Shown: positions 2,719-60,978 of the stretch, piece after piece
Position numbering within the stretch: the stretch's first letter is position 1
How the letters are laid out: each line of letters begins with the position of its first letter
Source: Acidobacteriota bacterium
GTDB lineage: Bacteria > Acidobacteriota > UBA6911
NCBI GenBank assembly: GCA_016934555.1
Contig: JAFGSS010000001.1
Span: forward strand, 1 to 62,758
Length of the DNA stretch: 62,758 bases
Reading direction: 5' to 3'
Notes under the pieces: model-generated
Told to the model about the DNA's origin: nothing
Seen by the model: only the letters and a program-made list of their open reading frames with translations
Databases searched by the model: none
Position numbers and translations under genes: made by a program

Positions 2719-2757
2719 ACCGGGGGGATCGATGCCCCCCCGGCTTCCAAAGAGCGG

Positions 2758-4359: not shown

Positions 4360-4538
4360 TCACATTCCCTCGTCGAAATCAGGGGCCGTGCACGATTTTG
4401 CGCCCCACCCCTGAGTTATCTTTGCTTCACGGCCCCGCAGGCGGGCATTCCCCCCGGACGGCATCCCCGCGAACCGGCCGGGGGCCCGGAGCCGTAAACC
4501 CTGGATTCTACCGTCAACGCGACGGGAGAAACAAGAAA

Positions 4539-5072: not shown

Positions 5073-5203
5073 CCCCTCCGGGTTACGGCGACCGACGCCC
5101 GTGGCCGCCGGGTCCACCCTATGGGTATACACCCATCGACAGGCCGCAGTCTCCCGAATTCATTTTCATTTTGACCGGCCGCTCCGCATAGTAAAATGAG
5201 CCA

Positions 5204-5467
5204 ATGGTCAGATACGCAAGACGCGTCGTCGTGTTCACGGTCGGCATGACGATATTTCTTTTCGGGATCGCCCTGGTCGTCCTCCCGGGGCCCGCCTTCG
5301 TCGTCATTCCCATCGGGCTGGCCATCCTGGCCACGGAGCACGCCTGGGCCCGGCACTGGCTGCGCGTCATGAAGGAATCGGCGGAGAAAGGGGTCGAAAG
5401 GCTGAACCTCCGTTCCCTGTTTTCCAGGACCCCCGGGCACGACGGTGGGGAGAGCACTGGCCGATAG
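5204..5467 (+). CDS. Small membrane protein, PGPGW-type
   Basis: Two hydrophobic helices and an LPGPAFVVIPIG motif reminiscent of the PGPGW putative transmembrane family. Confidence 0.55.
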   Translation: MVRYARRVVVFTVGMTIFLFGIALVVLPGPAFVVIPIGLAILATEHAWARHWLRVMKESAEKGVERLNLRSLFSRTPGHDGGESTGR

Positions 5468-5557
5468 TCCCATAAATTCCCTGATTGCAACGGTTCCCCC
5501 CCATCGTCAAATAAGATACAATGCATTCCTCGACTGCGTTGGCGGGTGGGGAGAGCG

Positions 5558-8500
5558 ATGAAGAAGCGCTGGATCGGACGCATAATCAAGGCGCTGGCGG
5601 CACTGGCCGTCTTCGTTGCCCTCATTCCGCTCCTGCTGCTGGCGCCGCCGGTCGGAAACTGGGTGTTCCATAAGGCGGGCGGATATCTCCGGCGCAGCGC
5701 GAAGATGGAGCTGCAGGCGGACCGGGTCCGGCTGAACCTGTTCACAGGGTCGGTCCGGTTGGAAAACCTGTCGCTCGCGGCTGCGCGCACCCCAGGACTC
5801 CCCCCCCTGCTGCAGGCCGATCACGCCTACGCCGACCTCGGTCTGCTCGATGCCGTCAGGGGGGTGTGGACGGTGGAAACCCTGCAGATCCACAAACCCA
5901 GGGTGCATTATTTCGTCGGCCCGGACGGGGAAACGAACCTGCCCCGGACGGAGGCCTCCGGGGACGCCTTACCCGATCTGCGGATTCTCCAGGCCGGCCT
6001 CACCGACGGCGCCCTGCGGTGGGAAGACCGCCGGCACGGACTGTGGATCGAACTCCCCCGCTGGGATCTTGCCGTCGAGGGAAACCGGGAGTCGCGCGCG
6101 CACCGCATCACCTTCGCCGGCCGGCAGGTTTCGACCTTCACCCTGGGGGACTTTTCGATCCCCGTCGATTCCGTCGATTTCGCAGGCGTTATGGACGGAC
6201 CCTTATGGCGCATAGACTCGGCCCGGGTCGGTGCCGCCCGGTCCACCCTTGAGTTCGGGGGATCCGTACGGAACCTCCGGGAACTCGACCTGGAACTGGC
6301 GCCCGGACTGGATGCCGGCGCCATCGCCGAAGCCGCGGGGTACGGGGGCAGGATCGCCGGCCGGGTCTCCGGAACCATCGGGGTCCGCGGCCCGCTCGAC
6401 AACCTGCGGATAGAGGGCCGGCTCGCGGGAGAGGGGGTGAAGCTGGAGGGGGTGCCTCCGCTCGACCTCCGGCTTGCCGCGGACCTGGAGTGGGATGCGG
6501 CCGGGGAGAGGGTGTCGATCGGAAGCCTGGACCTCGCCTCACCTTTAGGATCGCTCGGCGCCGAGGGAACGCTGTGCGCCGGGGAGGAGTGCGGGACCAG
6601 TGCCCTGCGGGCGCGGCTTCGTGACGTCGATCTCCTTCCCTTCGCGCGCAGCCTCGGTCTCCCTTTCCGCCTGGCCAGCCGGGTGGGAGGGACGGTCTCC
6701 GTCGAGTGGCGGGGGAAGCCCGCGCTGGCAAACATCCGCGCCAACGCCTCCCTCGAACTCGGGAGCACCCGTCCGGCGCCGGAGGCCGATCTCCTCCCCG
6801 TCTCCGCGACGGTGGATGCGGAGTTCGCATCCGGCCGGCTGCGGGGACACATACGCTCGCTTTCGGTCCTGGGTGCGCGGGCGACGGGCGAGTTCACCCT
6901 CCGATCTTTTCGCATCCTCGAGGGACACCTCCAGGGGGAAGCCGCCGACCTGGACGATTCCATGCAGCAGCTCGTGCGCTTTCTGGGGCATCCGGAATCC
7001 CCCGCAGGCGTCAGCCTGGCCGGCAACCTGAACTTCGACGTCCGGGCGGCGGGGGAACTGGACGACCTGGAGGTCGAGGCCGGGCTGGACGCCCCGTCGC
7101 TCGCGATCGCGGGCCTCGGGGGAATGGGGACCGAGGCGCGCGCCGTCTACCGAAACGGGACCCTCTCGTTTCAGAACAACCTCCGTCTTCCCGGCGAGGG
7201 CCTGCTGGAGGCCCAGGGCCTGCTCGATTTCGGCGGGGACGAGCCACGGTTGCGTCTCGCGGCCAAATCCGCGGCCCCCGTGCCGCTCGAGGCTCTCAAT
7301 TCACTGCTCGGGCGCTCGATCCCGATGTCGGGCACCCTGGAGACCTCGCTGCGCCTGGGCGGCCCCGTCGACAACCTCGCCGGGGATCTCTCCATCACGG
7401 GAGAAGCGCTCTCCCTGTACGAACTACCCCTGGGGCGGCTGGACATCCTGCTCGGCCTGGCCGATCGGGAGATCCGGTCCAGCCGGATTCGGATGTCGCG
7501 CAACCCCGAGCACCCATCGGCCGATCTGCTGACGGCCCGTGTTTCCTACTCCCTGGATACCGGCCGTTACGAACTCGAGGCGGAGGGGGCGGGGCTGGCC
7601 CTCGTCCCCGCGCACCTTCCCGGCGGAGCCCAAATCAACGGAACCCTCTCGCTCGAGGCTTCGGGAACGGGGACGATCGAAAATCCTTCCTTTGACCTCC
7701 AACTCGGATCGAACGACCTGCATGCATGGCGGAAACCCCTGGGCCCGGTTTCGGTCACGGCCCGGATCCGGGGGCCGGAAGCCGGCATCCGGGCGCTGGC
7801 ACCCGATCTTGATCTCTCCTCCGATGCCGCCCTGACACTGAGGGACCCCTGGCCCTTCCAGGTCACCGTCCAGGCGCGGGACTCCGACCTGGCCGCCGCC
7901 GGACTCGTGTGGCGCGGCCGGCCGGTAACCGGATCGCTCAGGGCGGACATCTCGGGTTCCGGAGAGCTGGGCGACCTGGAGGCGTCCCGGATCGAGGCGC
8001 TGATCGAAGAGGTGGCGGCGCGGGCGGGCGGACTCGAAGTGCGCACCGGGGCGGCGGCCGGAATCCACTATCGGGACCGCTCCCTGGAGTTCGCACCCCC
8101 CCTCGCCCTGGCCGGGGGCCATTCGGCGATAGAGCTTGGCGGCCGCCTCCCCATCCGGGCGGCGGCGCCGGCCGGAACCGTCAACCTCAAAGGGCGGCTC
8201 GACCTGGCGGACACCGGAAAAGTCTTCACCCCCCCCGAGGGATTCGGGCTCGAAGGAGTCCTCGATCTCGACCTGGTTCTCTCCGGCGCCTACGGAGATT
8301 TTGCCATCACGGGCGGATTCGGCCTGGACGCCGGAACGATATTCATTCCCAAAGCCGCCGTACCCATGACGGAAGCCTCCGCCCACGCGAAGATCGAGGA
8401 CGGGGTGCTGGTCCTGGAGCGGGCGGCCGCGAAATGGGGGAAAGGCAGCATCGGACTCTCGGGCACCGTCCCCCTCGGGTTGCTGCCCGAAGACCTTCCC

Positions 8501-11500
8501 CTCGAATTTGCGCGCCGGCCAGGGCCTGCCGAGTTCGTCCTCGACGTTGAAAATCTCGCCCCGGAAGCGACGGGATTCCTTCCCGAGGGAATTTCGGGCC
8601 TGGTTTCGCTCCGCGCCAGGGGGCGCGCCGAACATCCGGACCTCAAGGCCCTGGACGGCGACATCCGGTTCGGCACCCTGGACTTCAAGGTCGACACCAT
8701 CGGCTTCAGCCAGGCGGAACCGGTCCTGATCGAAATCCGCCGCGGCGTCGCCGCCATCGCCCGGCTCGCGCTCTCCGGGCCGGAAACCCGTATCGAGGCG
8801 TCCGGGACGGCGGGAGTGTACCCGCGGGGGCCGCTGGACCTCGCCGTCGAGGGCTCCCTCGACGCCGGGCTGCTCGGCGTTTTCAGCGAGGGGGTGAAAA
8901 CGGCGGGCGAACTGCGGATCGACGCGCGGGTCACGGGAGCCCTCGACGCCCCGGTTCTTTCGGGCCGGGCGGAAATGGACAACGGGAAGTTGGCCCTCCA
9001 ATCCCCCCGGCTCGCGGCCGACGATCTGAAGGTGCGGCTGGACCTCACCTCCGATTCCATCATCGTGCGCGAACTCACCGGCGTCCTCAACGGCGGCGCC
9101 ATGTCGGTCGAGGGTTCGATCGGGTACCATGACGGGATCCATAACGGCATCGATCTCGAGGCGAGCGTGCGGGACGTCTTCCTGGACTTCCCCGAGGGGC
9201 TGAAATCGGCGTCGAGCGGGAACCTGACCATGAAATCGGGGGAAGACACGATCGTCGTCGGCGGCAGCCTGCGGATCATGGAAAGCGCCTACCGGGATTC
9301 GATCGAAGTCGGGGGGCAGCTCGTCAACTACCTGAAATCGCAGCAGGTGGTGACCCTCGGCGAGGAACCCAATCCCTTCCTGGACCGGCTCCGGTTCAAC
9401 ATCGCCGTCCGCACCGTAACCCCGCTGCTGGTACAGAACAACATCGCCAGGGTCGAGGCCTCCGCCACGAATCTCCGCCTGGTCGGAAGCTATGCCGACC
9501 CCTCGGTCATCGGCCGCATCACCCTCGGCGAGGGGGGAGAGATCGTCCTCAACCAGCAGACCTATTACATCAACCGGGGGGTGATCACCCTGGTGAACCA
9601 GAGCCGCATCGAACCGGAATTCAACATCCAGGCGCAGACGAAGATCGACATCTACGAGATCACGCTCCAGCTGATCGGGAACCCCGACCGGATGTCCACC
9701 CTGCTCTCTTCCGACCCGCCGCTTTCGGAAAGGGACATCCTCTCGCTCCTCCTCACGGGCAAAACCGTCGCCGAGACCCAGGGGCGCGAGATGCAGATGG
9801 CCCGGACCCAGGCGCTGTCGCTGATCGCCGGACAGGCGGGGGCGGGAGTCACCAACGAGGCACGCAAGGCTCTGCACCTGAGCACCCTCCGGATCGACCC
9901 GGGGCTGATCGCCTCGGAATCCAACCCGGGGGCCCGCCTCACGATCGGGGAGGACGTCACGCGCGCCCTCAGCCTCGTCTATTCCATGAACCTCGTCAAC
10001 GGAGGGGACCAGATCTGGGCGGCCGAGTACGATATCGGCCGGCGCCTCTCGACCCAGGCCACCAAGCAGCAGGACAACAGCTACCGCTTCGAGTTCCGCC
10101 ACGACCTGCGCTTCGGGGGCGCAGGGGCGCGCCGCGGGGCGCAGCGGCAGGCGGCCCGGTTCGAGATCGGGTCGATCGAGTTCCTGGGGGAGGAGGCGCA
10201 CTCCGAAAAGGACCTGATGGACCGGTTCAAAAACAGGACGGGCGACCGGTACGAGTTTCAGAAAGTCCAGAAGGGGCTGGACCGCCTGAACGACTTCTAC
10301 TTCAGCCAGAACCGCCTGGAAGCCGATATCCGGCTCCAGCGCGAAACCGGGGAGAAGACCGTCGACCTGAAGGTCGGCATCGACCCCGGCCCGGTGGTGG
10401 AATTCGACTACGGCTCGTTCCCCCTCCGCAAGGAGGTGCGCGAGCGGGTCGCCAGGGCGTGGGCGGACGGGGTGTTCGAGGCCGAAAGACTGGACGAGGC
10501 GTCGCTCGTCATCCGCCGCTCCCTGACCGAAAGCGGTTTCCTCCAGGCCACGGTCGCGGCGGAAATGGCGGAGGGGGACGGCCGGAAGCGCGTTCGGTTC
10601 GCCATCGACCCCGGCCCCCATTACGCGGACGTTCCCCTCTCCTTCCCGGGGGCGGAGGGCATCTCCCCGGGCGCGCTCGGCGAACTCCTCGAGGCCGCCG
10701 ACCTGGAGCGCGAGATCTACGTCAACCCGAAAAAGGTGGCCGATTTCCTCCGGCGCTACTACCGCAACCGCGGGTACCTCCAGGCGGAGGTCTCCCCGCC
10801 GGAATTCCGAGCGGCCGCCCTGGAGACGGTGATCGCCGTTGCCGAGGGGCCGCTCTTCGTCATCGGCGAACTCGAGTTCTCCGGCAACAAGGTCTTCAGC
10901 TATGACGAACTCTGGATGGTCATCCCCACCTCGAGCGGCAGCGTCTACAACCCGGACTCGCTGAGGGAATCGGTCCGGGAGATGGAGAACCTCTACCACG
11001 GCCAGGGGTACAACGACGTCTCCATCACCTTCCGGGTGGTCCAGGACACCCCCGGGACCCGGGCCGACGTGAACTTCCAGATCACCGAACGGCGGCAGTC
11101 GGTCATCCGGGATATCGTGATCGAGGGGAACCGGGACACCCGGCCTGGGTTCGTCACCCGGCAGATCGACTTCCGGGTCGGCGACCCCCTGGATTACGAA
11201 AAGATCAACGAGGCCCGGAGGCGCCTGTATTCCACGGGGGTGTACACGACCGTCGATTTCCAGATGGAGGAACTCCCTTCCGAGGCTCCGGCCCCGGAGC
11301 GGAAGGACATGCGGGTGCGGGTCCGGCTGCGCGAGACCCAGCCCTACCGCCTGCAATACGGGCTCTTCTACGATACCGACCGCGGCGTCGGCGGCCTCGT
11401 GGAGGCGCAGCACCTGAACCTCCTGGGGCGGGCGACCAACCTCGGCCTCCGCCTCCGCTACGACTCCGACCTCAAGGAGGGGCGGTTGTACTATCACCAG

Positions 11501-17191: not shown

Positions 17192-18319
17192 ATGGCGAAG
17201 AAATCAGAAACCGGGAAAAAGGCCGCGCCCAGCTCGGGCAAAGCCGTCCTCAAGGCGATCGTAAGCTCGGCGGAGGATATCCGGCGCAAGATCATGGCGG
17301 GCAGGAAGCCGACCATGAAGCTCCCGGTCCGCTCCCTTTCCAACGTCCGGTACCAGCCCGAGCGCGGATTCTTTGAAATGAAGGGGCAGAAGAAGGAACG
17401 GACGCTCACGGTGAACACCGTCAAGACCTTCGCCCAGACCCTGCGCATGGTGGCGCTCTCGAAGGAGCTGGTGGAAAACGACGACATCGCAACCAAGAGG
17501 GAGGCCTACTACGTTTCCAAGAACTGGGAGGAGGCGCGTTTTGCCGAGCAGCCGGAATCTGACACCGTCATGGACGACGTCGAGGCCTTTTTCGGCGTCA
17601 ACCGCGAGCAGCTCGGCTTCATCCCCGAGGAAAAGGGGGGGGACGTCGCCGGCCGCCTGGTCGTGATCGACCGCGACCGCGACACGGGGCAGACGCTCCG
17701 GATCGACTGCACCCGGTTCGGGTCGGGCGCCTACAGCATCCCGATTTCCGTGGAAGACCTCAAGTTCGAGACCCAGGCCGATTTCATCCTCGCCATCGAG
17801 ACCGCGGGGATGTTCCAGCGCCTGGTGAAGCACAACTACTGGAAGAAGGCCAACTGCATCCTGGTCAGCATGGGGGGGGTCCCGACGCGCGCCTGCCGCC
17901 GCTTCATCCGCCGCCTGGCCGACTTCAAAAAGATCCCGGTCTACGTCTTCGTCGACGGGGACCCCTACGGGATCACCAACATCTACCGCACCCTCAAGGT
18001 GGGGAGCGGCAACGCCGCGCACCTCAACGAATACTTCTGCGTCCCCCAGGCCACCTTCCTGGGGATCACGCCCCAGGACGTCATCGACTACAAGCTCCCC
18101 ACCCACCCCCTGAAGGACGTGGACATCAAGCGCGCGCGGGACGCCATCAAAAACGACCCCTTCATCAAACACTACCGGCCGTGGATCAAGGCGATGGAGC
18201 AGATGCTCAAGATGGGGGTGCGCGCCGAACAGCAGGCGCTGGCCAAGCACGGGCTCAACTACGTCATCGAGGAGTACCTGCCCCAGAAGCTCAGCCACCC
18301 CGAACGCTTTTTGCCGTAG
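17192..18319 (+). CDS. top6A: DNA topoisomerase VI subunit A (Spo11-like)
   Basis: REAYYVS (catalytic Tyr region) and the Toprim motifs LAIETAGMF and VDGDPYGI. It follows top6B directly. Confidence 0.9.
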   Translation: MAKKSETGKKAAPSSGKAVLKAIVSSAEDIRRKIMAGRKPTMKLPVRSLSNVRYQPERGFFEMKGQKKERTLTVNTVKTFAQTLRMVALSKELVENDDIATKREAYYVSKNWEEARFAEQPESDTVMDDVEAFFGVNREQLGFIPEEKGGDVAGRLVVIDRDRDTGQTLRIDCTRFGSGAYSIPISVEDLKFETQADFILAIETAGMFQRLVKHNYWKKANCILVSMGGVPTRACRRFIRRLADFKKIPVYVFVDGDPYGITNIYRTLKVGSGNAAHLNEYFCVPQATFLGITPQDVIDYKLPTHPLKDVDIKRARDAIKNDPFIKHYRPWIKAMEQMLKMGVRAEQQALAKHGLNYVIEEYLPQKLSHPERFLP

Positions 18320-18340
18320 GGGACAGTCACCAGTGTCCCC
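18319..18340. repeat. Palindromic repeat element copy A (GGGGACAGTCACCAGTGTCCCC), a likely bidirectional terminator hairpin
   Basis: Stem GGGGACA/TGTCCCC with an 8-nt loop. It exactly fills the gap between the top6A stop (18317-18319) and the convergent GNAT stop (18340-18342). Near-identical copies lie at 20173 and 37926. Confidence 0.7.
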
Positions 18341-18795
18341 TATTCCTTCATCCACTCGAACAGGCGGTAATGCCCGTCGTCCATGCCGCAGTGCCGGTAG
18401 ACGGCGGCGGCATTGCGGTTGCCGCGCTCCACGTAGAGCCGGATCCCGTGGACATCCGTGCGCTCCGCCGCCTCCCGCTTCACCCGGCCGAACATCTCCC
18501 TGAATGCGCCCGCGCCCCGGCAATCGGGGACCACGTATACGGAGTGGACCCAGAGCACCTCGCCCCCCCGCCAGTCGCTCCATTCGTAGAGCACCATCAG
18601 ACAGCCGGCGGGGCGGCCGTCCGCTTCCGCCACCAGGTAGTAACCCCGTTCGGGGCAGCCGAGGATATGCCGGACCCCCTTCCCCACCCTCTCCGGGTCC
18701 AGGACCTTCCCTTCGGTCTCCAGCGCCATGGCGACCTGAAACGCCGCCAGTGCCGGGGCGTCACCGGGCCCGGCCCTGCGAACTCTGAATTCCAT
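18340..18795 (-). CDS. GNAT family N-acetyltransferase
   Basis: MEFRVRRAGPGDAPALAAF...VHSVYVVPDCRGAGAFREMF...NRNAAAVYRHCGM is a typical GNAT acetyl-CoA binding core. Confidence 0.8.
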   Translation of the reverse strand: MEFRVRRAGPGDAPALAAFQVAMALETEGKVLDPERVGKGVRHILGCPERGYYLVAEADGRPAGCLMVLYEWSDWRGGEVLWVHSVYVVPDCRGAGAFREMFGRVKREAAERTDVHGIRLYVERGNRNAAAVYRHCGMDDGHYRLFEWMKE

Positions 18796-19026
18796 GGATG
18801 GCCTCCCTGCGGGCCTCCTCCCGGAGCCGCCAGCGCCTGCTGTTTCATGCCCCCGGCGCGGCCGGCATCCGGGATCGAGGACCGACAGGTATTATGCCTG
18901 AATCCGCGTCCGTGCGCCCCCCTCCTTTTGAGCAGGGTGCGCAGCGCCATCTTTGGTAGAATGAAGTCAACGGCAATGTCGCCCCCGGCTTCGACCGAAG
19001 CGTGCGGTCCACACAAAGGAGGCATC

Positions 19027-20172
19027 ATGCATCGTTTCACCCGGCAGCACCTGAACCTTCTGACGGCGCGGCACGAGTCCCCCTGCGTCTCCCTGTATCA
19101 GTCCACTCACCGGCATCGTCCCCTGAACCAGCAGGACCCGGTCCGGTACCGCAACCTGCTCCGGGAGATGGACGCCTCCCTCCGCCGGCTTTACCCGGCG
19201 AGGGACGTGAAGCCGATCCTGGAACCCTTCGAGAAACTCGTCCGCGACGATGTTTTCTGGAACGGGAGGACCGAGGGAATGGCGCTCTTCGCTGCGCCCG
19301 GAATGTTCCAGGCGCTGTACCTGCAGCAGGCGGTCCCCGATCTTCTCATCGTGGCCGACAGCTTTCACATCAAGCCGCTGCTGCGGATCGCGCAGTCTGC
19401 CGACCGCTACCAGGTCCTGTGCCTCACCCGGCGGGAGGCCAGCCTCTACGAGGGGAACCGGGACGCGCTCGATGCGGTGGAACTGAAAAACATGCCCTCG
19501 ACCCTTACCGACGCGCTGGGGGAGGAGTTGACCGAACCGCACCAGACCGTCGCTTCCTACGGACAGGGAAGCGGCGGCACGCCCATGCGCCACGGGCACG
19601 GTTCGAGGAAGGACGAGGTCGACACCGACACCGAGCGGTTCTTCCGCGTCATCGACAGGGGCATCCTGGAACATTACTCGCAGCCTTCCGGCCTCCCCCT
19701 GATGCTGGCCGCGCTGCCCGAGTACCACACGCTGTTCCGATCGGTCAGCCACAATCCCCAGCTCCTGCAGGCGGGGATCACGATCAACCCGGACGCCCTG
19801 ACCCCGGAACAGCTGCGGACCGAATCGTGGCGCAGGATGGAACCGCTCTACCAGAAGCGGATCGACGCCTTGATCCGCGACTACCAGGAGGCGAAGTCCC
19901 GCAGGCAGGGATCAGACGACCTGTCCCTGCTGGCGGCGGCGGCGGCCGAGGGGCGCGTCGCCACGCTCTTGGTCGAGGCACACCGCCAGGTGCCGGGCCG
20001 GATCCTCTCCGGCACCGGCGAGATCAGGGCGAGCGCGATGTCCGACCCGGACACCGATGACGTCCTGGACGATCTGGCCGAACACGTGCTCCGGACGAAG
20101 GGAGAGGTGATCGTCATCCCCGGGGAGGAGATGCCCACCAGGACCGGCGCGGCCGCCATCTACCGTTACTGA
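19027..20172 (+). CDS. Bacterial archaeo-eukaryotic release factor (baeRF)-like protein
   Basis: ATG at 19027 is preceded by AAAGGAGG. The N-terminal PCVSLYQSTHRHRP...VRYRNLLREM and the C-terminal GEVIVIPGEEMPTRTGAAAIYRY resemble the baeRF3/7 families (eRF1/Pelota-like domain ending in an aromatic-rich tail). The 663-aa track ORF from 18181 is an upstream extension across the GNAT gene. Confidence 0.55.
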   Translation: MHRFTRQHLNLLTARHESPCVSLYQSTHRHRPLNQQDPVRYRNLLREMDASLRRLYPARDVKPILEPFEKLVRDDVFWNGRTEGMALFAAPGMFQALYLQQAVPDLLIVADSFHIKPLLRIAQSADRYQVLCLTRREASLYEGNRDALDAVELKNMPSTLTDALGEELTEPHQTVASYGQGSGGTPMRHGHGSRKDEVDTDTERFFRVIDRGILEHYSQPSGLPLMLAALPEYHTLFRSVSHNPQLLQAGITINPDALTPEQLRTESWRRMEPLYQKRIDALIRDYQEAKSRRQGSDDLSLLAAAAAEGRVATLLVEAHRQVPGRILSGTGEIRASAMSDPDTDDVLDDLAEHVLRTKGEVIVIPGEEMPTRTGAAAIYRY

Positions 20173-38480: not shown

Positions 38481-39008
38481 ATGGAAGCGAAAAACCGGTG
38501 CCCCGAATGCGGATACAGCTCCAATGAGGCCTTTACGGAATGTCCCGCCTGCGCCGCGGAAGAGAAGCCGGGGACCGGTTCCCCGAAAAACAAAATCACC
38601 CTGATTGTGGTGATCCTCCTCGCGCTCTGGGGGGTTTGGAGCTGGATCGGAGGCGATTCCGGCGCCGGGAATTCGGGGCGTGCGGAGCTCAGGATCAGCG
38701 CGGGGGAGAGGGTCGACCTCGCCGGCCACCTGGCCGAGGGTCGCCACACGGTCTTTCTCTTCTATGCCGACTGGTGACCCTCCTGCCGCAGAATACTGCC
38801 TCAGTTGGAGGCGGCCGACGCGCAATCCGATTTTTTCGAACTGCGGGAGATCGACATCACCGACTGGAACTCTTCCGTGGCCGGCCAGTACAACATCCGC
38901 AGCATCCCCCACTGCATGATTTACAGCCGTGACGGCGAGCTGAAGGAATCGGGTCCGGACGTCTGCTGGGCCGTCGTGGAGAATCCGTCGGCCCTGCTGC
39001 GGTACTGA
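38481..39008 (+). CDS. Membrane-anchored thioredoxin-like selenoprotein candidate (in-frame UGA at 38775-38777, motif W-U-P-S-C)
   Basis: GGTGGAG lies before the ATG at 38481. The protein has an N-terminal zinc ribbon (CPECG...CPAC) and a TM helix (ITLIVVILLALWGVWSWIG). The Trx fold then reads TVFLFYADW-TGA-PSCRRILPQLE...NIRSIPHCMIYSRDGE. The track ORFs 38400-38777 and 38805-39008 are in the same frame and are separated only by this TGA. Confidence 0.7.
38796..38814 (+). promoter_or_regulatory. Candidate SECIS hairpin for the Trx-like selenoprotein
   Basis: CTGCCTC AGTTG GAGGCGG is a 7-bp stem (one G-U pair) with a 5-nt loop containing GU. It begins 19 nt after the UGA. Confidence 0.4.
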
Positions 39009-43219: not shown

Positions 43220-43256
43220 CCGGCGGCAGGCGGTGCGAAAAACCACCTGCCGCCGG
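43220..43256 (-). terminator. Strong GC hairpin downstream of the 43275-43844 gene
   Basis: CCGGCGGCAGG...CCTGCCGCCGG is an 11-bp perfect stem with an inner GGTG/CACC extension. No clear U-tract follows. Confidence 0.4.
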
Positions 43257-43274
43257 TGGAACCATGGGCCTTGG

Positions 43275-43844
43275 TCAGTAGAGCCTGAAGAACAGCGTCC
43301 TGCCTCGGCCGGTGGCGCCCCCCGTATCCGGATCGAACACCATGACCGGCTTCGGGTCCTTCTCCTCCACCGCAAAGGCCACCCAACCTTCGACCGACCC
43401 GCCCGGCTTCACGATCCCGGCCATGGGCGGGGCCGGCACCTTGACCGGCACCCGCTCATACTCGGTCAGATCCTCCGAGAGTGCGACCCATTCGAGCGGC
43501 GCCTCCCCGAGGGTGAAGGTGAGGGTATCGCTGACGGCCCTCCCCTTCAGTTCGAACCTGACGCGCGCCAGGATGTATTCCATCCCCGCCCGGGGTGCCG
43601 GGTTATCCGGATCTGCCGCCCTGAGGCGCTCGAGCGCCTCCCGGCCGCGCACGATTTCGACCACGGTGATGGCGATGTCGTAGATGTTCGAATAAACCGA
43701 TCCGAGTTCAACCATGGACCGCACCCGGGAGCCAATGGCAGCCGGTTTCGTCGAGGAATTCTCCTGCGCCGCCGCCGGCTCGAGCCCGCCGGCGGCCGCC
43801 AGCACCAGGATCCCTGCCATAAACACTGCGAATCTGCTTTTCAT
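43275..43844 (-). CDS. Secreted hypothetical protein (DUF4352-like beta-sandwich suspected)
   Basis: AGGAG lies before the ATG at 43844. Signal peptide MKSRFAVFMAGILVLAAAGG. It starts 8 nt after the upstream selenoprotein-candidate stop. Confidence 0.5.
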   Translation of the reverse strand: MKSRFAVFMAGILVLAAAGGLEPAAAQENSSTKPAAIGSRVRSMVELGSVYSNIYDIAITVVEIVRGREALERLRAADPDNPAPRAGMEYILARVRFELKGRAVSDTLTFTLGEAPLEWVALSEDLTEYERVPVKVPAPPMAGIVKPGGSVEGWVAFAVEEKDPKPVMVFDPDTGGATGRGRTLFFRLY

Positions 43845-43851
43845 AGGTCTC

Positions 43852-45633
43852 CTATCTCCAGTCATCCACGCTGGCGCTCCCCACATAGCCGAAATCCCCG
43901 CCGGACCAGAAGGTGTTCGTACCCCCTCCCGTGACGACGATTTCAATGGATGTGGAGGTTTCGTTGCTGTCCCTGGACGCCATGAATGCCGGGTTGCGCC
44001 CGGCGGAGGCGCTGCGGGTGTACCGGGAAACGGGGACCACCGCCCCCTCGCCCTGCCGGAGCCACCCGGCGTAGGGCTCCACCCCCTTCTTCGCCTGCTC
44101 CAGCGCCCGCTCGTTTTGAGACCAGTAGAGCCACCCCGGCGTTCCGGTGTTTTCAGCGAGGTATTTCGCGAACGATTCCTTGGTGGGGTGGCCGTTCGCC
44201 GCCACGTCCGCCGCGACGATCGGGTCGAGGACGAGCGTGGCCTGGGTGGTGCCGAAGGAGAAGAAATGCTCCAGCCAGCCCCGGATAACCTCGTGAATCG
44301 GCAGCGGCGAGTACCACGCGATGTCGCTCATGCTCCAGCCGCTGAAGACGCTGACGACGCTATCCGATTTTTTGAATCCCTTCTGCACGTGAAGCGGCTT
44401 CCAGCCCGCCGGCAACCCCGCCTCGTTTTCCGGGAAACAGAGGTTGTTATAGTTCAGAGGGTTCCCCTGGCTCCCGAGGTAGGTTTCCCCCGGTTTCCCC
44501 GAACCGCCGAGATTCTTGGAAATCAGGGTCCAGCACCGGCCGATGGCGCTGTTGGCCCGGTTGACGGGTCCCATCGCCCCGATCCCCGTATTCATCCCGA
44601 TTTCGTCCACTACCGGCCCGTTGACCACGACCATCCGGGCGAAGGACGAAGTGGAACTGAACATCGAGGTGACCCCCTTGCCCGCCAGGGCCAGGATCGT
44701 GGGGAAATATTCCGGCTTGGCGCCCGCCATCACGGCGTTCACGGCCACCATCTCGACGGTGTAATACCAGGCTTCGTGCGGGGGGGAGGGGCGCATCTGT
44801 CCCACCCACTCGTCCGGCTGGCGGCTCGTGGCCTTCAGCATCTCGGCGACCTTTTCCTCGGTCGGAAGGATGACGGGATTGCCGTCGGTGAATCCCTGCT
44901 CGTGGAAATACTCCATGAGCTTTTCGGGGGTATCGGGCGGCAGCAGCCGCGTCCGCGCCTCCCGCGGTAGAAAACCGGCCTTGCCGTCCTCGGCCGAAAG
45001 CGGGCGGCTCAGTCCGGCGTATATCTGCCCGAGCATCGGCTGGCCCGAGTTGGGATCGTTCCCGGCGACATATTGGCGGCACAGTTCCGCCGGACGGTCG
45101 GTGATGGGGTGGGGGGTATAGGTGATCCGCATGTTGGGGATCCCCTTCTTGTAGGAGATCGTGGTCACGAGCTCCTTGAAACGCGCCGTGATGATGGGGA
45201 CCGCGGGCACGCCCATCCTTTCCAGGGTCACTGCATGGCCGACGACCGCCGGCGAGCAGCTGCTTCAATGCCCCACCAGGACGATGGCCCCCGCGGCCTT
45301 CGCCTTGACCTCCTTCCAGAGGTTCGGGTCATCATCCATGTACCCGCCGATCTTGTCCTTCAGTACCCACGTCGTCGCGGGATACTTCGCCTTGAGGGCC
45401 GCATGGAGCTCCTCGACGAAGGGCTTCGTGTTCGGATACTTGGTGTCCACGATGTAGACCGTCTTGCCGTCGAGCGAAGCGGGACGCGCCGCCATGGGAA
45501 TCTTGCGAATTTCGGGCTTGATCCCCTGGGGATTCATCACCACTATCCGGGCCGGGTCCGCCGTCCATCCGACCGATGCGGCCGCAGCCGCCATGAGGGC
45601 AAGGCCCAGTATTTTGACCGCCGTGTTTTTCAT
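43852..45633 (-). CDS. UGSC-like selenoprotein candidate with large C-terminal domain (in-frame UGA at 45267-45265, motif H-U-S-S-C)
   Basis: GGGAGG lies before the ATG at 45633. The minus-strand read is ...GAIVLVGH-TGA-SSCSPAVVGHAVTLERMGVPAVPIITARF..., verified on the nucleotide sequence. The track ORFs 45265-45687 and 43852-45231 are in the same frame, 12 codons apart, with this TGA the only stop between them. The N-terminus resembles a signal peptide or membrane anchor. Confidence 0.65.
45231..45259 (-). promoter_or_regulatory. Candidate SECIS hairpin for the USSC selenoprotein
   Basis: On the minus strand: CUGC-UC-GCCG-[GCGGUCGU]-CGGC-CAU-GCAG. The apical loop contains GGUC about 21-24 nt from the U of the UGA, similar in position to the E. 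coli fdhF SECIS loop. Confidence 0.4.
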
Positions 45634-45675
45634 ACCATCAACCTCCCGCTGAATGAATTGGAGCCGCCGCTCCCG

Positions 45676-45693: not shown

Positions 45694-45875
45694 GCCTGAA
45701 GACCCATTAAATCACAAATCGGCCGGAATCGCTCGGTCCAAATCAGGGGCAAACCGCCGCGGGAATAAAAAGGGGCTGTTAGCCATCGGGCCCCGCGTAT
45801 GGTAATCTAACCTGTTTGGTGAAAAATGAAGCCAAGACGCAATACCTGTGCCACCCTCGCCTCCGGTTTGTCATC

Positions 45876-46238
45876 ATGCATGAACTAGGCATCGCGCAGA
45901 ACATCATGGAAATTGTCCGGCAGTCGGTCCCCGAAGGACTGGCCCGGGACATCAGGAAGATCAGGGTCCGGGTCGGGCAGTTCGCGGGAGTGGTCCCCGA
46001 TTCGCTCGATTTCTGCTTCGGCGTGATGGCGGGGGAATCGGAGATGCCGCGGGCGGCGCTCCTCATCGAGGAGGTGCCCACGGCCTGCCGCTGCCGGGGG
46101 TGCGGACGGGAATTCGAGATGGAAGAACTGGTGTTCCTCTGCCCCCACTGCGGCGGCACCGACCTGGAGGTGATTTCGGGCAAGGAACTGGAGGTCGTGG
46201 ACATCGAACTGGTGGATCATGGCGGTGAGGCCTTATGA
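45876..46238 (+). CDS. hypA: Hydrogenase nickel insertion protein HypA
   Basis: MHELGIAQNIMEIV... with CRCRGCG...CPHCGG zinc motifs. Confidence 0.9.
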   Translation: MHELGIAQNIMEIVRQSVPEGLARDIRKIRVRVGQFAGVVPDSLDFCFGVMAGESEMPRAALLIEEVPTACRCRGCGREFEMEELVFLCPHCGGTDLEVISGKELEVVDIELVDHGGEAL

Positions 46239-46891
46239 GCATAGTGACCATTGAGCGGAAAGTACTCGAAAAGAACGACCAGATCGCCGAGCGGAACCGG
46301 CGCTTCTTCCGGGACCGGGGGATCTTCGTCCTGAACCTCGTCAGCAGCCCGGGCGCCGGGAAGACCTCCATCCTGGAAAAGACTTTCGAGCGGTTGCGGG
46401 ACGACTGCAGGATGGCCGTCATCGAGGGGGACGTCCAGACCGACCTGGACGCCCAGCGGGTGGCCGAGTACCAGGTCCCCGTGGTCCAGATCGTGACCAT
46501 GGGGGGCTGCCACCTCGAGGCGGGCCTGGTGGCCGACGCCATGGGAAAACTGGACCTGGACTCCGTCGACCTGCTCTTCATCGAAAATGTCGGGAACCTG
46601 GTCTGCCCTTCCGGCTACGACCTCGGGGAGGCGCTGAAGGTGGTGGTCCTGAGTACGACCGAGGGGGACGACAAACCCCTGAAGTACCCGGCGATGTTCC
46701 GCAACGCATCGGTCCTCCTCATCAACAAGACCGACCTGATCCCCTACGTGAACTGCCGGCTCGACGTCCTGCGCGGCAACGCCCTTAAAATCAATCCCGA
46801 TCTCCGGGTTTTTGAAATATCCTGCTCCACGGGCGCCGGGATCGACGCCTGGTGCGAATGGCTCAGGGGAAAGGGCGCTTCCGGGCAGTGA
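46235..46891 (+). CDS. hypB: Hydrogenase nickel-incorporation GTPase HypB
   Basis: P-loop SSPGAGKTSILE, ENVGNLVCP and LINKTDL. The ATG overlaps the hypA stop (ATGA). Confidence 0.9.
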   Translation: MSIVTIERKVLEKNDQIAERNRRFFRDRGIFVLNLVSSPGAGKTSILEKTFERLRDDCRMAVIEGDVQTDLDAQRVAEYQVPVVQIVTMGGCHLEAGLVADAMGKLDLDSVDLLFIENVGNLVCPSGYDLGEALKVVVLSTTEGDDKPLKYPAMFRNASVLLINKTDLIPYVNCRLDVLRGNALKINPDLRVFEISCSTGAGIDAWCEWLRGKGASGQ

Positions 46892-46899
46892 TTCAAAGG

Positions 46900-49233
46900 A
46901 TGCAGATCACCATCCAGGGAGCGGTCCAGGGGGTTGGTTTCCGCCCTTTTATCCACAGGCTCGCTTCCGGGATGGGTCTCACCGGATCGGTCCGGAATTC
47001 CTCCCAGGGGGTTTTCATCGAGGTCGAAGGGGAACCACCGTTGCTCGACTCCTTCCTCCTGCGGATCGAAAGGGAGAAGCCGGAGCTCTCCTTCATCCAG
47101 AGCCTGGAATTCTCCATCCTCGACCCGGTCTTCTTCCGGGGGTTTACAATCGGGCCGAGCGAAGCGGCGGGGGAGACCAACGCCCTGATCCTGCCCGACA
47201 TCGCCACCTGCGACGACTGCGCCCGCGAAATCATGGACCCCTCCAACCGCCGCTACCGCTATCCGTTCACCAACTGCACCCGCTGCGGTCCACGCTTCAC
47301 CATCATCGAATCCCTCCCGTACGACCGGCCCAACACCTCCATGAAGTCATTCGAGATGTGCCCCCGGTGCCGGGCCGAGTACGAAGACCCGGCTGACCGA
47401 CGTTTCCACGCGCAGCCGAACGCCTGCCCCGTGTGCGGCCCTCGGCTCGAGCTACGCGACGGCGCGGGACGGACCGTCGCCGAAGACGGCGGGGCGCTCG
47501 AGGCGGCGGCCGGGGCGGTGCTCGGGGGGAAGGTCGTCGCCGTGAAGGGCCTGGGGGGCTTTCACCTCATCGCCGACGCCACCCGGGCCGGATCGGTCGA
47601 AACCCTCCGGCAAAGGAAGCACCGGGAGCAGAAGCCCTTCGCCCTCATGTTCCCCTCGCTCGACGCCGTGCGCGCCGAGTGCCTCGTCTCCCCGCTCGAG
47701 GAGCGGGGGCTCCGGTCCCCCCAGTCGCCCATCGTCCTGCTCGCGAGGAGAACGGATCTCCCGTCGTCCCTGGCCGAAGGAGTCGCCCCGGGCAATCCCT
47801 TCCTGGGGGTGATGCTGCCCTACACCCCGCTGCACCACCTGCTGATGCACGAGATCGGCCGCCCCGTCATCGCCACCAGCGGGAACCTCGCGGACGAACC
47901 GATCTGCATAGACGAGGCCGAAGCCCTCGGGCGCCTCGAGGGGATCGCCGATCTTTTTCTCGTGCACGACCGGCCCATCGTGCGGCACGCGGACGATTCC
48001 ATCGTCCGGATCGTCCTCGGGCGCGAGCTCGTAGTGCGCAGGGCCCGCGGCTACGCCCCCCTTCCCCTGCGTCCGCACGGGATCGTTTCCGACATCCTCG
48101 CCGTCGGCGGGCACCTGAAAAACACCATCGCCGTTTCCGTCGCCGGGAATGTTTTCCTCAGCCAGCACATCGGGGACCTGGAAACGGAGCAGTCGGGCAG
48201 GGCCTTCCGCGGGGCGATCGAGAGTTTCCTGCGCCTCTACCCGGTGCGGCCGAAGTGGATCGCAGCCGACATGCATCCCGATTACGCCTCGAGCCGGTAC
48301 GCCCGGGCGGCGGGCATCCCGCTCATCGAAATCCAGCACCACCACGCCCACGTCGCCGCCTGCATGGCGGAGAACGAACTGGAGGGAGATGTCCTCGGGG
48401 TGTGCTGGGACGGCACCGGATACGGGGAGGACGGCACCGTCTGGGGAGGGGAATTTCTGCGGACGGAAGGGACCGGGTTCGCCCGGGTGGCCGCAGTGCG
48501 CCGGTTCCGTCTGCCGGGGAGCGCCGCGGCGGTCCAGGAACCGCGGCGCTCGGCCCTCGGGGTGCTGTACGAGATCCTGGGCGATGCCGTCTTCGGGGAA
48601 ACCGATCTCGCGCCGGTCCGGGCCTTCAGCGCGGCCGAGATCCCCGTCCTCCGCACTATGCTGCGCCGGGGCATCCACTCCCCCTGGACGACGAGCGCGG
48701 GGCGGCTTTTCGACGCGGTGGCGTCCCTTGCCGGGTTGCGCCAGAAGCTCCGGTTCGAGGGCCAGGCGGCCATGGAGCTGGAGTTCGCCGCGGAGGGGAC
48801 GGGAGGGGGCGCCTACCCCTTCGGGCTTCTGGACCCGGAGCGCGCCGGGGCGGGAGCCCTCGGCGTGGACTGGGAACCGCTGATCCGGGCCGTCATCGCC
48901 GATGTCCGCGCCTCCGTCCCCCCGGCGGAAATCTCCGGGAGGTTTCACAACGCGCTGGCCGACATCATCGTGGCGGTGGCGCAGAGGGTGGGAGTCCCGC
49001 GCGTAGCCTTGACCGGGGGCTGCTTCCAAAACAAAATACTGTTGGAGCGGGCCGTGGGGAGGCTGCGGGAGGAGGGGTTCTGCCCCTACTGGCACCAGCG
49101 GATTCCTCCCAACGACGGCGGCATCGCGCTGGGACAGATCGCGGCGGCGTCGCGGATTCTCGGCAAGGGCGAAACGAACGAGTTCATAATCAGAGGAGGG
49201 GGCCATGTGCCTGGCGGTTCCGGGAAAGATTGA
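46900..49233 (+). CDS. hypF: Carbamoyltransferase HypF
   Basis: Acylphosphatase domain (IQGAVQGVGFRPFIHRLA), two zinc fingers (CDDCAREIMDPSNRRYRYPFTNCTRCGPRFTI; CPRCRAEYEDPADRRFHAQPNACPVCGPRL), and YrdC and Kae1-like domains. Confidence 0.9.
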   Translation: MQITIQGAVQGVGFRPFIHRLASGMGLTGSVRNSSQGVFIEVEGEPPLLDSFLLRIEREKPELSFIQSLEFSILDPVFFRGFTIGPSEAAGETNALILPDIATCDDCAREIMDPSNRRYRYPFTNCTRCGPRFTIIESLPYDRPNTSMKSFEMCPRCRAEYEDPADRRFHAQPNACPVCGPRLELRDGAGRTVAEDGGALEAAAGAVLGGKVVAVKGLGGFHLIADATRAGSVETLRQRKHREQKPFALMFPSLDAVRAECLVSPLEERGLRSPQSPIVLLARRTDLPSSLAEGVAPGNPFLGVMLPYTPLHHLLMHEIGRPVIATSGNLADEPICIDEAEALGRLEGIADLFLVHDRPIVRHADDSIVRIVLGRELVVRRARGYAPLPLRPHGIVSDILAVGGHLKNTIAVSVAGNVFLSQHIGDLETEQSGRAFRGAIESFLRLYPVRPKWIAADMHPDYASSRYARAAGIPLIEIQHHHAHVAACMAENELEGDVLGVCWDGTGYGEDGTVWGGEFLRTEGTGFARVAAVRRFRLPGSAAAVQEPRRSALGVLYEILGDAVFGETDLAPVRAFSAAEIPVLRTMLRRGIHSPWTTSAGRLFDAVASLAGLRQKLRFEGQAAMELEFAAEGTGGGAYPFGLLDPERAGAGALGVDWEPLIRAVIADVRASVPPAEISGRFHNALADIIVAVAQRVGVPRVALTGGCFQNKILLERAVGRLREEGFCPYWHQRIPPNDGGIALGQIAAASRILGKGETNEFIIRGGGHVPGGSGKD

Positions 49234-49453
49234 GAGCATCGACAGCACCGATCCGGTGTTTCGCAGCGGAAAGGTCAATTTCGGCGGGATCCTCAAGGAG
49301 GTCAACCTCGCCTACGTGCCGGAGGCGAACATCGGCGATTACGTCCTCGTGCATGTCGGGTTCGCCATCAGCACCATAGACGAGGCGCAGGCGAAGGAAA
49401 CACTCTCGTACCTCGAGGAGATCGACCGGCTGGCCGGGGTGGAGAACGGATGA
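49205..49453 (+). CDS. hypC: Hydrogenase assembly chaperone HypC
   Basis: The [10 protein letters not shown]-terminus is diagnostic for HypC/HupF. Confidence 0.9.
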
Positions 49454-50541
49454 AGCATATCGACGAGTACCGCGACGGGACCGCCGCCCGGGCCTACGCG
49501 GAGGCGATCGCCAGGATCACCACCCGGCCCTGGACGATCATGGAAGTATGCGGCGGACAGACCCATTCCATCGTCAAGTTCGGCATCGACGAGCTGCTCC
49601 CCCCCGCCGTCACCCTGGTCCACGGCCCCGGGTGCCCCGTATGCGTCACGGCGCTCGAGTATGTCGAAAAGGCGATCGAAATCGCCTCCCTCCCCGGGGT
49701 CCTGTTCTGTTCCTTCGGGGACATGCTGCGGGTCCCGGGGATTTCCCGGGACCTTCTCTCGGTAAAAGCGTCGGGAGGGGACGTGCGGATCGTCTATTCG
49801 CCCCTGGACGCGCTCAGGCTGGCCGCGGACCATCCCGACCGCGAGGTCGTATTCTTTGCCGTGGGGTTCGAGACCACGGCGCCCGCCGTCGCCATGGCCG
49901 CCTGGCAGGCCGTCCGGCAGGGGGCGCGCAATTTTTCCATGCTGGTGTCCCACGTGCGGGTCCCCCCGGCCATGGAAGCGGTCCTCTCGTCCCCCGACAA
50001 CCGGGTCCAGGGCTTCCTGGCGGCGGGTCATGTGTGCGCCGTGATGGGAACGGCCGAATACGGGCCGATCGCCTCCCGCTACCATATCCCCATCGTCGTC
50101 ACGGGATTCGAACCGGTCGATATCCTGCAGGGGCTTTACATGTGCCTCCGGCAGCTCGAACAGGGGCGGGCGGAGGTGGAAAACCAGTACTCCCGCTCGG
50201 TGCGCCCCGAAGGGAACCCCGCCGCCCGGAAGCTGATGGGGGAGATATTCCGGGTGGTCCCGCGCAAGTGGCGCGGGATCGGGGAAATCGCCCAAAGCGG
50301 CCTGGGCCTCAGGGAGAAATATGCCGGGCTCGACGCCGAGACCCGGTTCGGGGTCGCCCATCGCACGACCGAGGAGCCGCCGGAGTGCCGGAGCGGCCTG
50401 GTCCTGCAGGGGATTCTGAAGCCCCGCGAATGCCCCGAGTTCGGCACCCGATGCACCCCGGAACACCCCCTGGGAGCGACGATGGTGTCTTCCGAGGGGG
50501 CCTGCGCCGCCTACTATCATTACCGGAGAAGAAGAAGCTGA
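49450..50541 (+). CDS. hypD: Hydrogenase formation protein HypD
   Basis: [20 protein letters not shown] and GFETTAP motifs. The ATG overlaps the hypC stop. Confidence 0.9.
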
Positions 50542-59053: not shown

Positions 59054-59079
59054 GAGGTTTTTTGCGACGTTGGAAACTT

Positions 59080-60978
59080 ATGAGGCACGTAATCGCGGGG
59101 ACGGCGGGGCACATCGACCACGGCAAGAGCGCGCTGGTCCGCGCGTTGACGGGGGTCGATCCCGACCGCCTGAAGGAGGAGCAGCAGCGGGGCATCACGA
59201 TCGACCTGGGGTTCGCCCACCTGGACCTGGGGGACGTCCAGGTCGGGTTCGTCGACGTCCCGGGGCATGAGAAATTCGTCAAGAACATGCTCGCCGGGGT
59301 GGGGGGCATCGACTTCGTGCTCCTGGTCATCGCCGCCGACGAATCGATCATGCCGCAGACACGGGAGCATTTCGACATCTGCCGCCTCCTCGGGGTGAGC
59401 GCCGGGATCGTCGTCATCAACAAGGTCGACCTCGTGGACCCGGAGATGCTGGAATTGGTCGTCGACGAGGTGACCGAAGCGATGGCCGGGTCTTTCCTGG
59501 AAAAAGCCGAAATCATCCCCGTCAGCTCCAGGACCGGCGAGGGGATCGAACGGCTGAAGCGCTCGATCCACGACCTGGCGCTGACCGCAGCCCCACGTCC
59601 CGGCAACCGGCTGCTCCGGCTCCCCATCGACCGTGCCTTCAGCATCCACGGCTTCGGCACCGTGGTGACCGGCACGCTGACCTCGGGCGAGATCCAGAAG
59701 GACCAGGAGATCGAATTCGTGCCGGGCGGTCTGACGGCCAAGGTGCGCGGGCTGCAGGTGCACGGCCGGATGACGGCGCGCGCGGTGGCCGGCCAGCGCA
59801 CGGCGGTCAATCTCCAGGGGATCGACCTCGGGCAGGTGGAGCGCGGAATGGTCGTGACGGTCCCCCGCCTCTTCCGCCCCACGCAGATCCTGGACGTCCG
59901 GTTGTCGCTTCTGCCCGACGCCAAGCCGCTGCGAAACCTGGTCAAGGTCCGCTTCCACCAGGGGACGCTGGAAGTACTCGCGCGCGTCGCCCTCCTCGGA
60001 CAGGACACCCTCGCCCCGGGGGAAACCGCCTACGCCCAGCTGAGGCTGGACGCACCCGCCTTCTGCCTCCATGACGACGCCTTCATCATCCGGCGCTTCA
60101 GCCCCACGATCACCATCGGCGGCGGCCGCGTCCTCCACCCCAACCCGTCCAAGCACAAAAGCACCGACGGGCGCACCCTCGCGGCGCTCAAGGAGCTGGA
60201 CCGGGGGGAGCTCGAGGCCAAGATCCCGGTGCTCGTCGCTACCGATGCCAAGCGGGCGGTGACGGTGGGCGGGCTGAATTCGCTGCTGGGGCTGCCGGGG
60301 CCCGAAATCACCCGGATCTGCGCGGAACTGGCGAAAGCGGGGCGCATCGTCATGATCCCGGCGCCGTCCCCGATCCTGACCCTCCCATCGGTGGTGGCCG
60401 ACCTGCAGAAGGAGACCCTGGCGCGCGTCGCCGCGTTCCACAAGGACAACGAGCTGCAGCGGGGGATATCGAAAGAGGAGCTGCGCAAGCGTTTCTACGA
60501 CGACGTCCCGCTCGAGGTCTTCCGCCACTGCCTCGACCGGATGGTGGAAGCGCGGCAGATCGTTTTCCTGGGGGAGGCGGTCTCCCTGTACGGCAGGGAA
60601 ATCCAGCTGTCGGCGGAGGAGGAAGCACTCCGGGAGATGATCGAGGCCACGGTCCGGCAGGCAGCCTACCAGCCCCCCGCCATGACCGAGCTGCAGGCAT
60701 CCATTCCTGCGGACGCCGAGGGCGTCCGCCGCATCTTCTTCTGGATGCTGAAGGAAAAGATCCTGGTGAAGCTGTCGGACGACCTCATCTATCACCGCGA
60801 GACGCTCGAGGAGATGAAGGGGCGGATCCGGGCGACGTTCGCCCCGGGGGCCCGGTTCGGGGTCGCCGACTTCAAGGATCTCTTCGGCATCACCCGCAAG
60901 CACGCCATCCCGCTGCTCGAGCACTTCGACCGGGAGAAGTTCACGCGCCGCCTGGGCAACGACCGGGTCCTGGTATAG
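59080..60978 (+). CDS. selB: Selenocysteine-specific elongation factor SelB
   Basis: [25 protein letters not shown]...[10 protein letters not shown]...DVPGHEKF...NKVDL. A long C-terminal winged-helix extension (about 630 aa total) is characteristic of SelB rather than EF-Tu. Confidence 0.9.

Follow-up and report, generated by a model that had tools for sequence, protein, structure and literature searches.

Is the TGA that interrupts a reverse-strand gene in a 62,758-nucleotide stretch of Acidobacteriota DNA (GenBank assembly GCA_016934555.1, contig JAFGSS010000001.1; this whole stretch is called the window below) an ordinary stop codon, or is it read as selenocysteine (Sec)? An earlier note on this DNA had proposed the latter, taking the two halves for one gene that encodes a UGSC-like selenoprotein and that shares an operon with a secreted protein. 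We find that 45633..43852 (−) is almost certainly a Sec-containing gene in which a UGSC domain is fused to a second, larger domain. This assignment follows from the strict conservation of the UGA, the presence of Cys in its place in full-length homologues, a hairpin on its 3' side and the occurrence of selB in the window. The best overall explanation, which we regard as likely, is that of a probably exported UGSC-fusion selenoprotein with a proposed reductase-type redox chemistry.

The in-frame TGA and the hairpin behind it

Both halves of the gene lie in the same frame, and reading of the open reading frames (ORFs) confirmed that the TGA, codon 123 of the gene, is the sole in-frame stop between its start and its end (Table 1). 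The read-through product has the sequence ...GAIVLVGH-U-SSCSPAVVGHAVTLERMGVPAVPIIT... around this position. The split-ORF pattern is by itself weak evidence, since more than 100 same-frame ORF pairs divided by a single TGA, with at least 60 codons on either side, occur in the GC-rich window; it is homology that makes the case at codon 123 real. Pfam PF24696 (UGSC) covers residues 32-190 with E = 9.5e-30 (104.4 bits; cut-off 25) and a single domain therefore bridges codon 123. The UGSC-like character suggested for the N-terminal domain is borne out by the same match.

Related loci were sought in one genome per species, and the codon was readable in 77 of the 79 that were found. It is TGA in all 77, down to 38% identity, and in all of them U-x-x-C is kept and both flanks are conserved (...G-H-U-S-S/T-C-S/T-P-A...). 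These loci span Acidobacteriota, Desulfobacterales, Desulfatiglandales, Gammaproteobacteria, Rhodospirillales, Dehalococcoidales and Acidiferrales, and the upstream ORF cluster was found in 77 loci. Uninterrupted homologues of 545-620 residues, aligning end to end, also exist. The top full-length matches in a profile search have C-S-T/S-C at the Sec column without exception (119 of 119), and Cys occupies the column in 11 of the 31 representatives (clustered at 50% identity) that span the position. The homologue search recommended in the earlier note has thus produced Cys-containing orthologues aligned across the TGA, and these, with the TGA conserved in relatives, argue for one gene and for a Sec codon within it. 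The selB gene noted before is also present, its product matching four Pfam domains.

In public records of relatives, gene callers truncate or split the 593-codon gene. The closest 120 protein clusters in a database of 5.8 billion proteins are 393-460 residues long and all of them start past the TGA, with none crossing it. The Sec branch of the family is in this way systematically mis-called, and the selenoproteomes of Acidobacteriota and of sulfate-reducing and aromatic-degrading Deltaproteobacteria are therefore undercounted.

The two-tier hairpin with a GGUC loop that had been described downstream of the TGA is present at 45260-45230. Its lower stem pairs 45260-45256 with 45234-45230 and its upper stem pairs 45253-45248 with 45243-45238, closing the GGUC apical loop at 45247-45244; the upper stem begins 11 nucleotides past the UGA. 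In 54 sequences the upper helix is 96% paired, and 9 sequences have U-A in place of C-G at the 15-37 pair of the lower helix. At the four-fold-degenerate codons +4 to +9 (S-P-A-V-V-G) the third-position entropy is 0-0.87 bits, compared with 1.3-1.96 bits at comparable four-fold codons upstream and downstream, and this suppression of synonymous variation coincides exactly with the hairpin. Compensatory changes are seen in a divergent subgroup (L060, L063, L067, L071 and L079), where the 18-30 pair goes from G-C to A-U and the 21-27 pair from C-G to G-C with the hairpin at the same place, and in L070, where the 18-33 pair goes from G-C to C-G. The Acidiferrales subgroup has a hairpin of its own with a GUC loop. 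All of the hairpin variants keep a G-U in the apical loop 18-23 nucleotides past the UGA. Bacterial selenocysteine insertion sequence (SECIS) elements follow rules for the apical-loop G-U and for its spacing from the UGA that resemble what is found here. Judged by the pairing, the synonymous constraint and the compensatory changes, and not by folding energy, the hairpin is under selection as RNA.

The candidate SECIS resembles that of the Escherichia coli fdhF type in being an intragenic hairpin directly 3' of the UGA with a G and a U in its loop, and the distance of its upper stem-loop from the UGA is alike. It differs in that its sequence is unrelated, its upper stem lacks the bulged U and other subgroups of the family have differently registered hairpins.

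Domains, probable export and relatives

A selenoprotein family of UGSC-containing proteins was recognised in 2007 (Zhang & Gladyshev, PMC1976440), its function being unknown. Ocean metagenomes are rich in such proteins, and a 'UGSC/Unknown_1' fusion, whose second part may or may not be the C-terminal domain found here, was noted in 2008 (PMC2398784); reviews of 2022 and 2026 still list the family as uncharacterised (PMC9312934, PMC13188914). With the family established and a fusion already reported, the newness first claimed for this protein was overstated. The window gene adds a further, misannotated member to an established selenoprotein family; it represents neither a novel kind of system nor a new decoding mechanism.

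The window protein shares with the UGSC family (PF24696, NF041046) the N-domain match, the U-x-x-C motif and the alternation of Sec and Cys among homologues. It differs in having U-S-S-C instead of U-G-S-C, in its NF041046 score of 72.6 bits (cut-off 125) and in the addition of a predicted signal peptide, a 400-residue C-terminal domain and a DUF4352-like secreted partner. NF041046 is an equivalog model for stand-alone UGSC proteins of ~147 residues, and the full-length Cys fusions, at 32-64 bits (51-64 bits for those with an NCBI name), also fall under its cut-off. PF24696 was matched by all 19 of the diverse homologues compared with it. By these scores the fusion proteins share the UGSC domain yet are no equivalogs of the small UGSC proteins. 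The motif is U-S-S-C here and U-S-T-C, U-D-G-C or C-S-T-C in relatives, so that the spacing of UxxC is constant and its middle residues vary. The Cys-type proteins (~550 residues), which NCBI names 'UGSC family (seleno)protein' or 'UGSC-like domain-containing protein', have the same two domains and align end to end with the window protein at 38-47% identity. Examples from Pseudonocardia, Microbacterium album, Aquamicrobium and Georgenia halophila have C-S-T-C at the Sec position. They differ from the window protein in having Cys for Sec and in having neither a signal peptide nor a DUF4352-like partner.

For the structural comparison the window's C-terminal fragment and a 47%-identical Cys homologue stood in for the read-through protein, the homologue as an AlphaFold model with a predicted local distance difference test (pLDDT) score of 85.7 and a predicted template-modelling (pTM) score of 0.85. 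In this model the N-domain alternates beta-strands and helices about a parallel sheet. The Sec-equivalent Cys148 is found in the loop directly past strand 140-146 and Cys151 opens the next helix. The U-S-S-C motif is accordingly placed by the model between a beta-strand and a helix, in agreement with the earlier prediction of a UxxC at the end of a strand. The best Foldseek matches of the N-domain in the PDB, over ~120 residues, are Rossmann-, flavodoxin- or periplasmic-binding-like, and there is no thioredoxin fold among the top 50 PDB matches of the homologue model. A thioredoxin-fold thiol-disulfide oxidoreductase was rejected for this reason, the N-domain of the modelled homologue being Rossmann/flavodoxin-like.

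The C-terminal two-thirds of the protein had been said to belong to no recognisable family, and our searches agree. The domain (~400 residues) has no match in Pfam or NCBIfam, and no PDB sequence came in under E = 0.1 when searched with a profile. In Foldseek searches of the PDB it was unmatched when the full-length model was used, and the best match of the C-domain model had E = 0.05 and a probability of 0.12. Class I fumarate hydratase, the Toblerone fold and cis-aconitate decarboxylase came up as possible relatives and, at these values, were treated as noise. Longer proteins that contain the domain have no additional informative Pfam domains. The motifs conserved in it are WTDGxPxxLPTE, TVExVAVNAVMAG, VNGP, GMNxGxGAxGPxNxANxxIGR, ENE, VVxGG and a C-terminal DxWR. 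The positions that are invariant or nearly so in it have polar residues or Gly/Pro (LPT, E294, MAG, NGP, N361, G365-R366, E402, W411 and the C-terminal W-R). The family comprises 3,778 clusters at 50% identity (E up to 1e-3); it is thus large, genomes have several paralogues of it, and none of its members has been characterised.

The N-terminus had been thought to look like a signal peptide, and hydrophobic N-termini of the Sec type, here meaning the secretion pathway (MKNTAVKILGLALMAAAAASVGWTA... in the window), do recur throughout the close subgroup A. Twin-arginine-type leaders (MNRRKLLSLLGASPALLAG) are found in L062, L069 and L072-L080, from Acidiferrales and other Acidobacteriota, and a third subgroup has no leader peptide. 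The window protein and its partner are probably both exported by Sec-type signal peptides, from which we infer a periplasmic selenoprotein. The selenoprotein family would then have three modes of localisation (Sec-type, twin-arginine and without leader), and the twin-arginine export of one subgroup may mean that the protein folds or takes up a cofactor before it leaves the cytoplasm.

Nine contexts of the cytoplasmic forms were examined, eight of the Cys type and one, L070, of the selenocysteine form. A gene for a thioredoxin reductase (TrxR)-like protein is adjacent in six of the nine. In five of the eight Cys-type contexts (L083, L084, L086, L087 and L089) it encodes a flavoprotein of 304-325 residues and lies directly downstream. 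Four of these flavoproteins (L083, L084, L086 and L087) score 271-283 bits with TIGR01292 (thioredoxin reductase), below the equivalog cut-off, and that of L089 was recognised by its Pfam domains and by tblastn only. In L070 the TrxR-like gene is directly upstream. No exported-type locus has a TrxR-like gene. The presence of such a neighbour suggests a redox cycle of U/CxxC that would feed a reductase reaction. Regulators of the GntR/FCD type and TctAB, TRAP or ABC transporters are frequent near the cytoplasmic relatives, and one relative, in which Met occupies the Sec column, adjoins glycyl-radical enzymes.

Two further features of these neighbourhoods were observed. Upstream of cytoplasmic Cys-type homologues there is an unannotated protein of 365-382 residues without a Pfam or NCBIfam match (L082 6431-7525, L083 4183-5328 and L086 4571-5680); in L083 and L086 its gene adjoins those of TctAB transporters. 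On a metagenome contig, L088, genes for two homologues without Cys at the Sec column alternate with those for two glycyl-radical enzymes and a radical-SAM activase (1571-11102), and this cluster adjoins an amino-acid permease.

Proposed chemistry and rival readings

We propose that Sec123 and Cys126 would cycle between the selenol/thiol and selenenylsulfide states, with Sec serving as nucleophile, or as electron donor, towards a small molecule that the C-terminal domain would bind as substrate. The reaction would be of the reductase type, with a logic like that of GrdB/PrdB or of thioredoxin-dependent reductases. In the cytoplasmic relatives the oxidised motif would be re-reduced by the dedicated TrxR-like flavoprotein encoded next door, and the exported form in the window would use a donor other than an adjacent TrxR-like enzyme. 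That the enzyme is a reductase and Sec its catalytic residue is plausible, though we stop short of favouring it. Of the redox enzyme with catalytic Sec that was originally put forward, the Sec codon and the UxxC motif have held up; catalysis by Sec is less secure, because many relatives have neither Cys nor Sec at the column. Further from the data, the exported Sec forms could tentatively be seen as a class of periplasmic selenoenzymes in which the UGSC domain delivers a selenol to a catalytic domain of unseen fold. In anaerobes such a class might possibly act, together with the DUF4352-like partner, on an organic compound of the periplasm or of the medium outside the cell, and its electrons might, equally tentatively, come from a source that is not NAD(P)H and TrxR.

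The protein had also been likened to Grd-type selenoproteins in addition to the UGSC family. The likeness to UGSC stands, and that to Grd does not extend beyond a marginal echo of GrdF/GrdB in the sequence near Sec (positions ~330-397; E = 0.085-0.14). With GrdB-type proteins (glycine, sarcosine and betaine reductase) and PrdB it has a logic in common, namely a UxxC-type Sec, a small substrate and a reductant from the thioredoxin system. It differs from them in its motif, UxxC where theirs is UxxCxxC, and in its predicted export. Membership of GrdB/PrdB was rejected, since the score is 11 bits where cut-offs of 600-800 apply. A pyruvoyl partner (GrdE/PrdA) is not among the neighbours in 81 loci, and GrdA and GrdC/D were not found nearby.

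Several observations weigh against an exported selenoprotein with redox chemistry. No tRNA-Sec, selA or selD was found within the window, in which ARAGORN found no tRNA of any kind and an Rfam scan at gathering thresholds gave no match. The folding energy of the hairpin is not better than that of shuffled sequence (z = +1.2), and RNAalifold on the close subgroup retains just 3 invariant pairs, a result made uninformative by a stem that is almost invariant in the 54 close relatives. The putative signal peptides were judged from the hydrophobic N-termini, and no periplasmic electron donor was found. The contexts of the family are heterogeneous and include transporters for organic acids, an esterase of the tannase family and glycyl-radical enzymes. 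The C-terminal domain is without any conserved Cys, and 20 of the 31 spanning representatives have neither Cys nor Sec at the column (S in 6, M in 5, T in 2, G and others). By the latter count the C-terminal domain functions without this redox centre in many lineages.

It is on this last point that the main rival rests, in which the C-terminal domain would work on its own, as an enzyme without redox chemistry or as a binding module, and the U-x-x-C would be a redox switch or an accessory. The 20 representatives do retain the C-terminal motifs, and one form with neither Cys nor Sec at the column has glycyl-radical enzymes, and no reductase, as neighbours. A costly Sec is nevertheless strictly kept with its resolving Cys in 77 of 77 loci and C-x-x-C is retained in all 119 of the Cys-form matches, while the dedicated TrxR-like gene in six of nine cytoplasmic contexts makes turnover chemistry a better fit than a switch. 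We judge this rival unlikely, although it is the most serious of those considered. A Dsb-like protein of the periplasm, a thiol-disulfide oxidoreductase or isomerase with other proteins as substrates and the DUF4352-like protein as client or adaptor, would account for the UxxC motif, the predicted export and the conserved secreted partner, and one record of a metagenome-assembled genome (MAG) labels a relative 'Thiol-disulfide oxidoreductase protein'. Such a protein would, however, be expected to have a thioredoxin fold and not the parallel beta-alpha-beta sandwich of the N-domain model, and a conserved extra domain of 400 residues would be unexpected in it. In addition, the mature part of the window's partner is without Cys and the cytoplasmic relatives occur in small-molecule catabolic and transport clusters, all of which makes a Dsb-like role improbable.

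The remaining two rivals concern the codon itself. If there were two genes, a 122-140-residue ORF ending at the TGA and a 459-residue ORF from GTG 45231, or if the gene were a pseudogene or an assembly error, it would be no surprise that public gene calls annotate the halves apart or omit the first one, or that TGA-split pairs are common in the window. This reading is very improbable given that a single Pfam domain bridges the TGA, that the TGA and both flanks are conserved across 77 independent assemblies and that uninterrupted Cys homologues exist; the called starts of the second half, moreover, vary (424-460 residues) and none is conserved. Still less credible is an alternative code with TGA read as Trp or Gly. 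A few distant homologues do have G or W at the column, but Cys is overwhelmingly the residue there, TGA serves as the ordinary stop of the downstream partner gene, selB is present and a hairpin under selection lies 3' of the codon.

To the exported redox selenoprotein that we prefer, and to its family, the analysis adds the exported subgroups, the DUF4352-like partner and the TrxR-like link in cytoplasmic relatives, together with a natural series of Sec, Cys and redox-dead forms and a large domain without a solved structural relative. Experimental handles are offered by the TrxR-like reductase for the cytoplasmic forms, by the secreted partner for the exported forms and by the natural Sec, Cys and redox-dead variants.

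The operon partner and neighbouring genes

The positions of the features are collected in Table 1. The next gene had been described as encoding a secreted protein in the same operon. Its start lies 7 nucleotides past the TAG of the selenoprotein gene, with an AGGAG that overlaps the upstream stop, and it adjoins the gene in 56 related loci, where it is the only conserved neighbour; in two of the Gammaproteobacteria (L045 and L046) it is on the opposite side. The window partner, which has a predicted signal peptide, has no match to PF11611 (DUF4352) with an E of 1 or below. The L069 homologue of this partner (36% identity, tblastn E = 1e-20) matches that model with E = 7e-6 and 26.7 bits (cut-off 25.9). 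To judge from this recurrence and from the L069 match, the predicted selenoprotein and the secreted DUF4352-related protein form a conserved two-gene cassette.

Table 1 Features of the window that belong to or bear on the predicted selenoprotein gene
Feature	Position	Strand	Basis or detail
Predicted selenoprotein gene, 593 codons	43852..45633	−	ATG 45633, Sec codon 123, TAG 43854-43852
Shine-Dalgarno-like GGGAGG	45642..45647	−	8 nucleotides 5' of ATG, read from sequence
Putative Sec-type signal peptide MKNTAVKILGLALMAAAAASVGWTA	45562..45633	−	Hydrophobic N-termini alike across subgroup A
UGSC-family alpha/beta redox domain, residues 32-190	45064..45540	−	Pfam PF24696
UGA codon, residue 123 of U-S-S-C motif	45265..45267	−	TGA in relatives, Cys in full-length homologues
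Candidate SECIS element	45230..45260	−	Pairing, synonymous constraint, compensatory changes
C-terminal domain, ~400 residues	43855..45063	−	No curated family, no solved structural relative
Operon partner, 189-residue putative secreted protein, DUF4352-related	43275..43844	−	ATG 43844, TGA 43277-43275
Terminator-like hairpin and T run, end of two-gene operon	43233..43259	−	Sequence
selB, Sec-specific elongation factor that recognises SECIS elements	59062..60978	+	Pfam GTP_EFTU, Beta-barrel_SelB, SelB-wing_2, SelB-wing_3

A second paralogue of the selenocysteine type (...ALVGD before its own TGA) is found near the cassette in 10 loci (L005, L018, L030, L031, L033, L034, L036, L047, L053 and L057) and lies directly after the partner in 7 of them. 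Six selenocysteine-type copies (L016, L017, L022, L023, L040 and L054) are carried by one Acidobacteriota chromosome, OY761556.1. A gene of the tannase/feruloyl-esterase family is found near the cassette in 14 loci. One such secreted hydrolase, at 8147-9757 of L011, matches PF07519 with E = 5e-117, and it recurs in 13 other loci; this recurrence is a possible hint at aromatic-ester substrates.

Other genes of the window were noted in passing. Divergent from the selenoprotein operon, at 45816-50541 (+), are hypA-like, hypB-like and hypF-like genes, recognised from their ORF translations only, and a gene for HypD, identified by Pfam. Hyp genes next door are common to the two closest MAGs only and have therefore no functional link to the operon. 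A second likely selenoprotein gene is found at 38481-39008 (+) with a TGA at 38775-38777. Its product of 175 residues has a zinc-ribbon-like N-terminus, one transmembrane helix and a thioredoxin domain with W-U-P-S-C, and the Pfam Thioredoxin match (E = 3e-11) bridges the TGA. This TGA is kept in a 78%-identical copy in L004, and the hairpin predicted on its 3' side is not better than shuffles. The thioredoxin-like protein was considered as the periplasmic reductant of the UGSC-fusion protein, and no link to it is claimed because it accompanies the gene in just one related locus. Finally, at 18181-20172 (+) there is a gene for a protein of 663 residues whose C-terminal domain resembles the bacterial archaeo-eukaryotic release factors (baeRF family 3, E = 3e-49).

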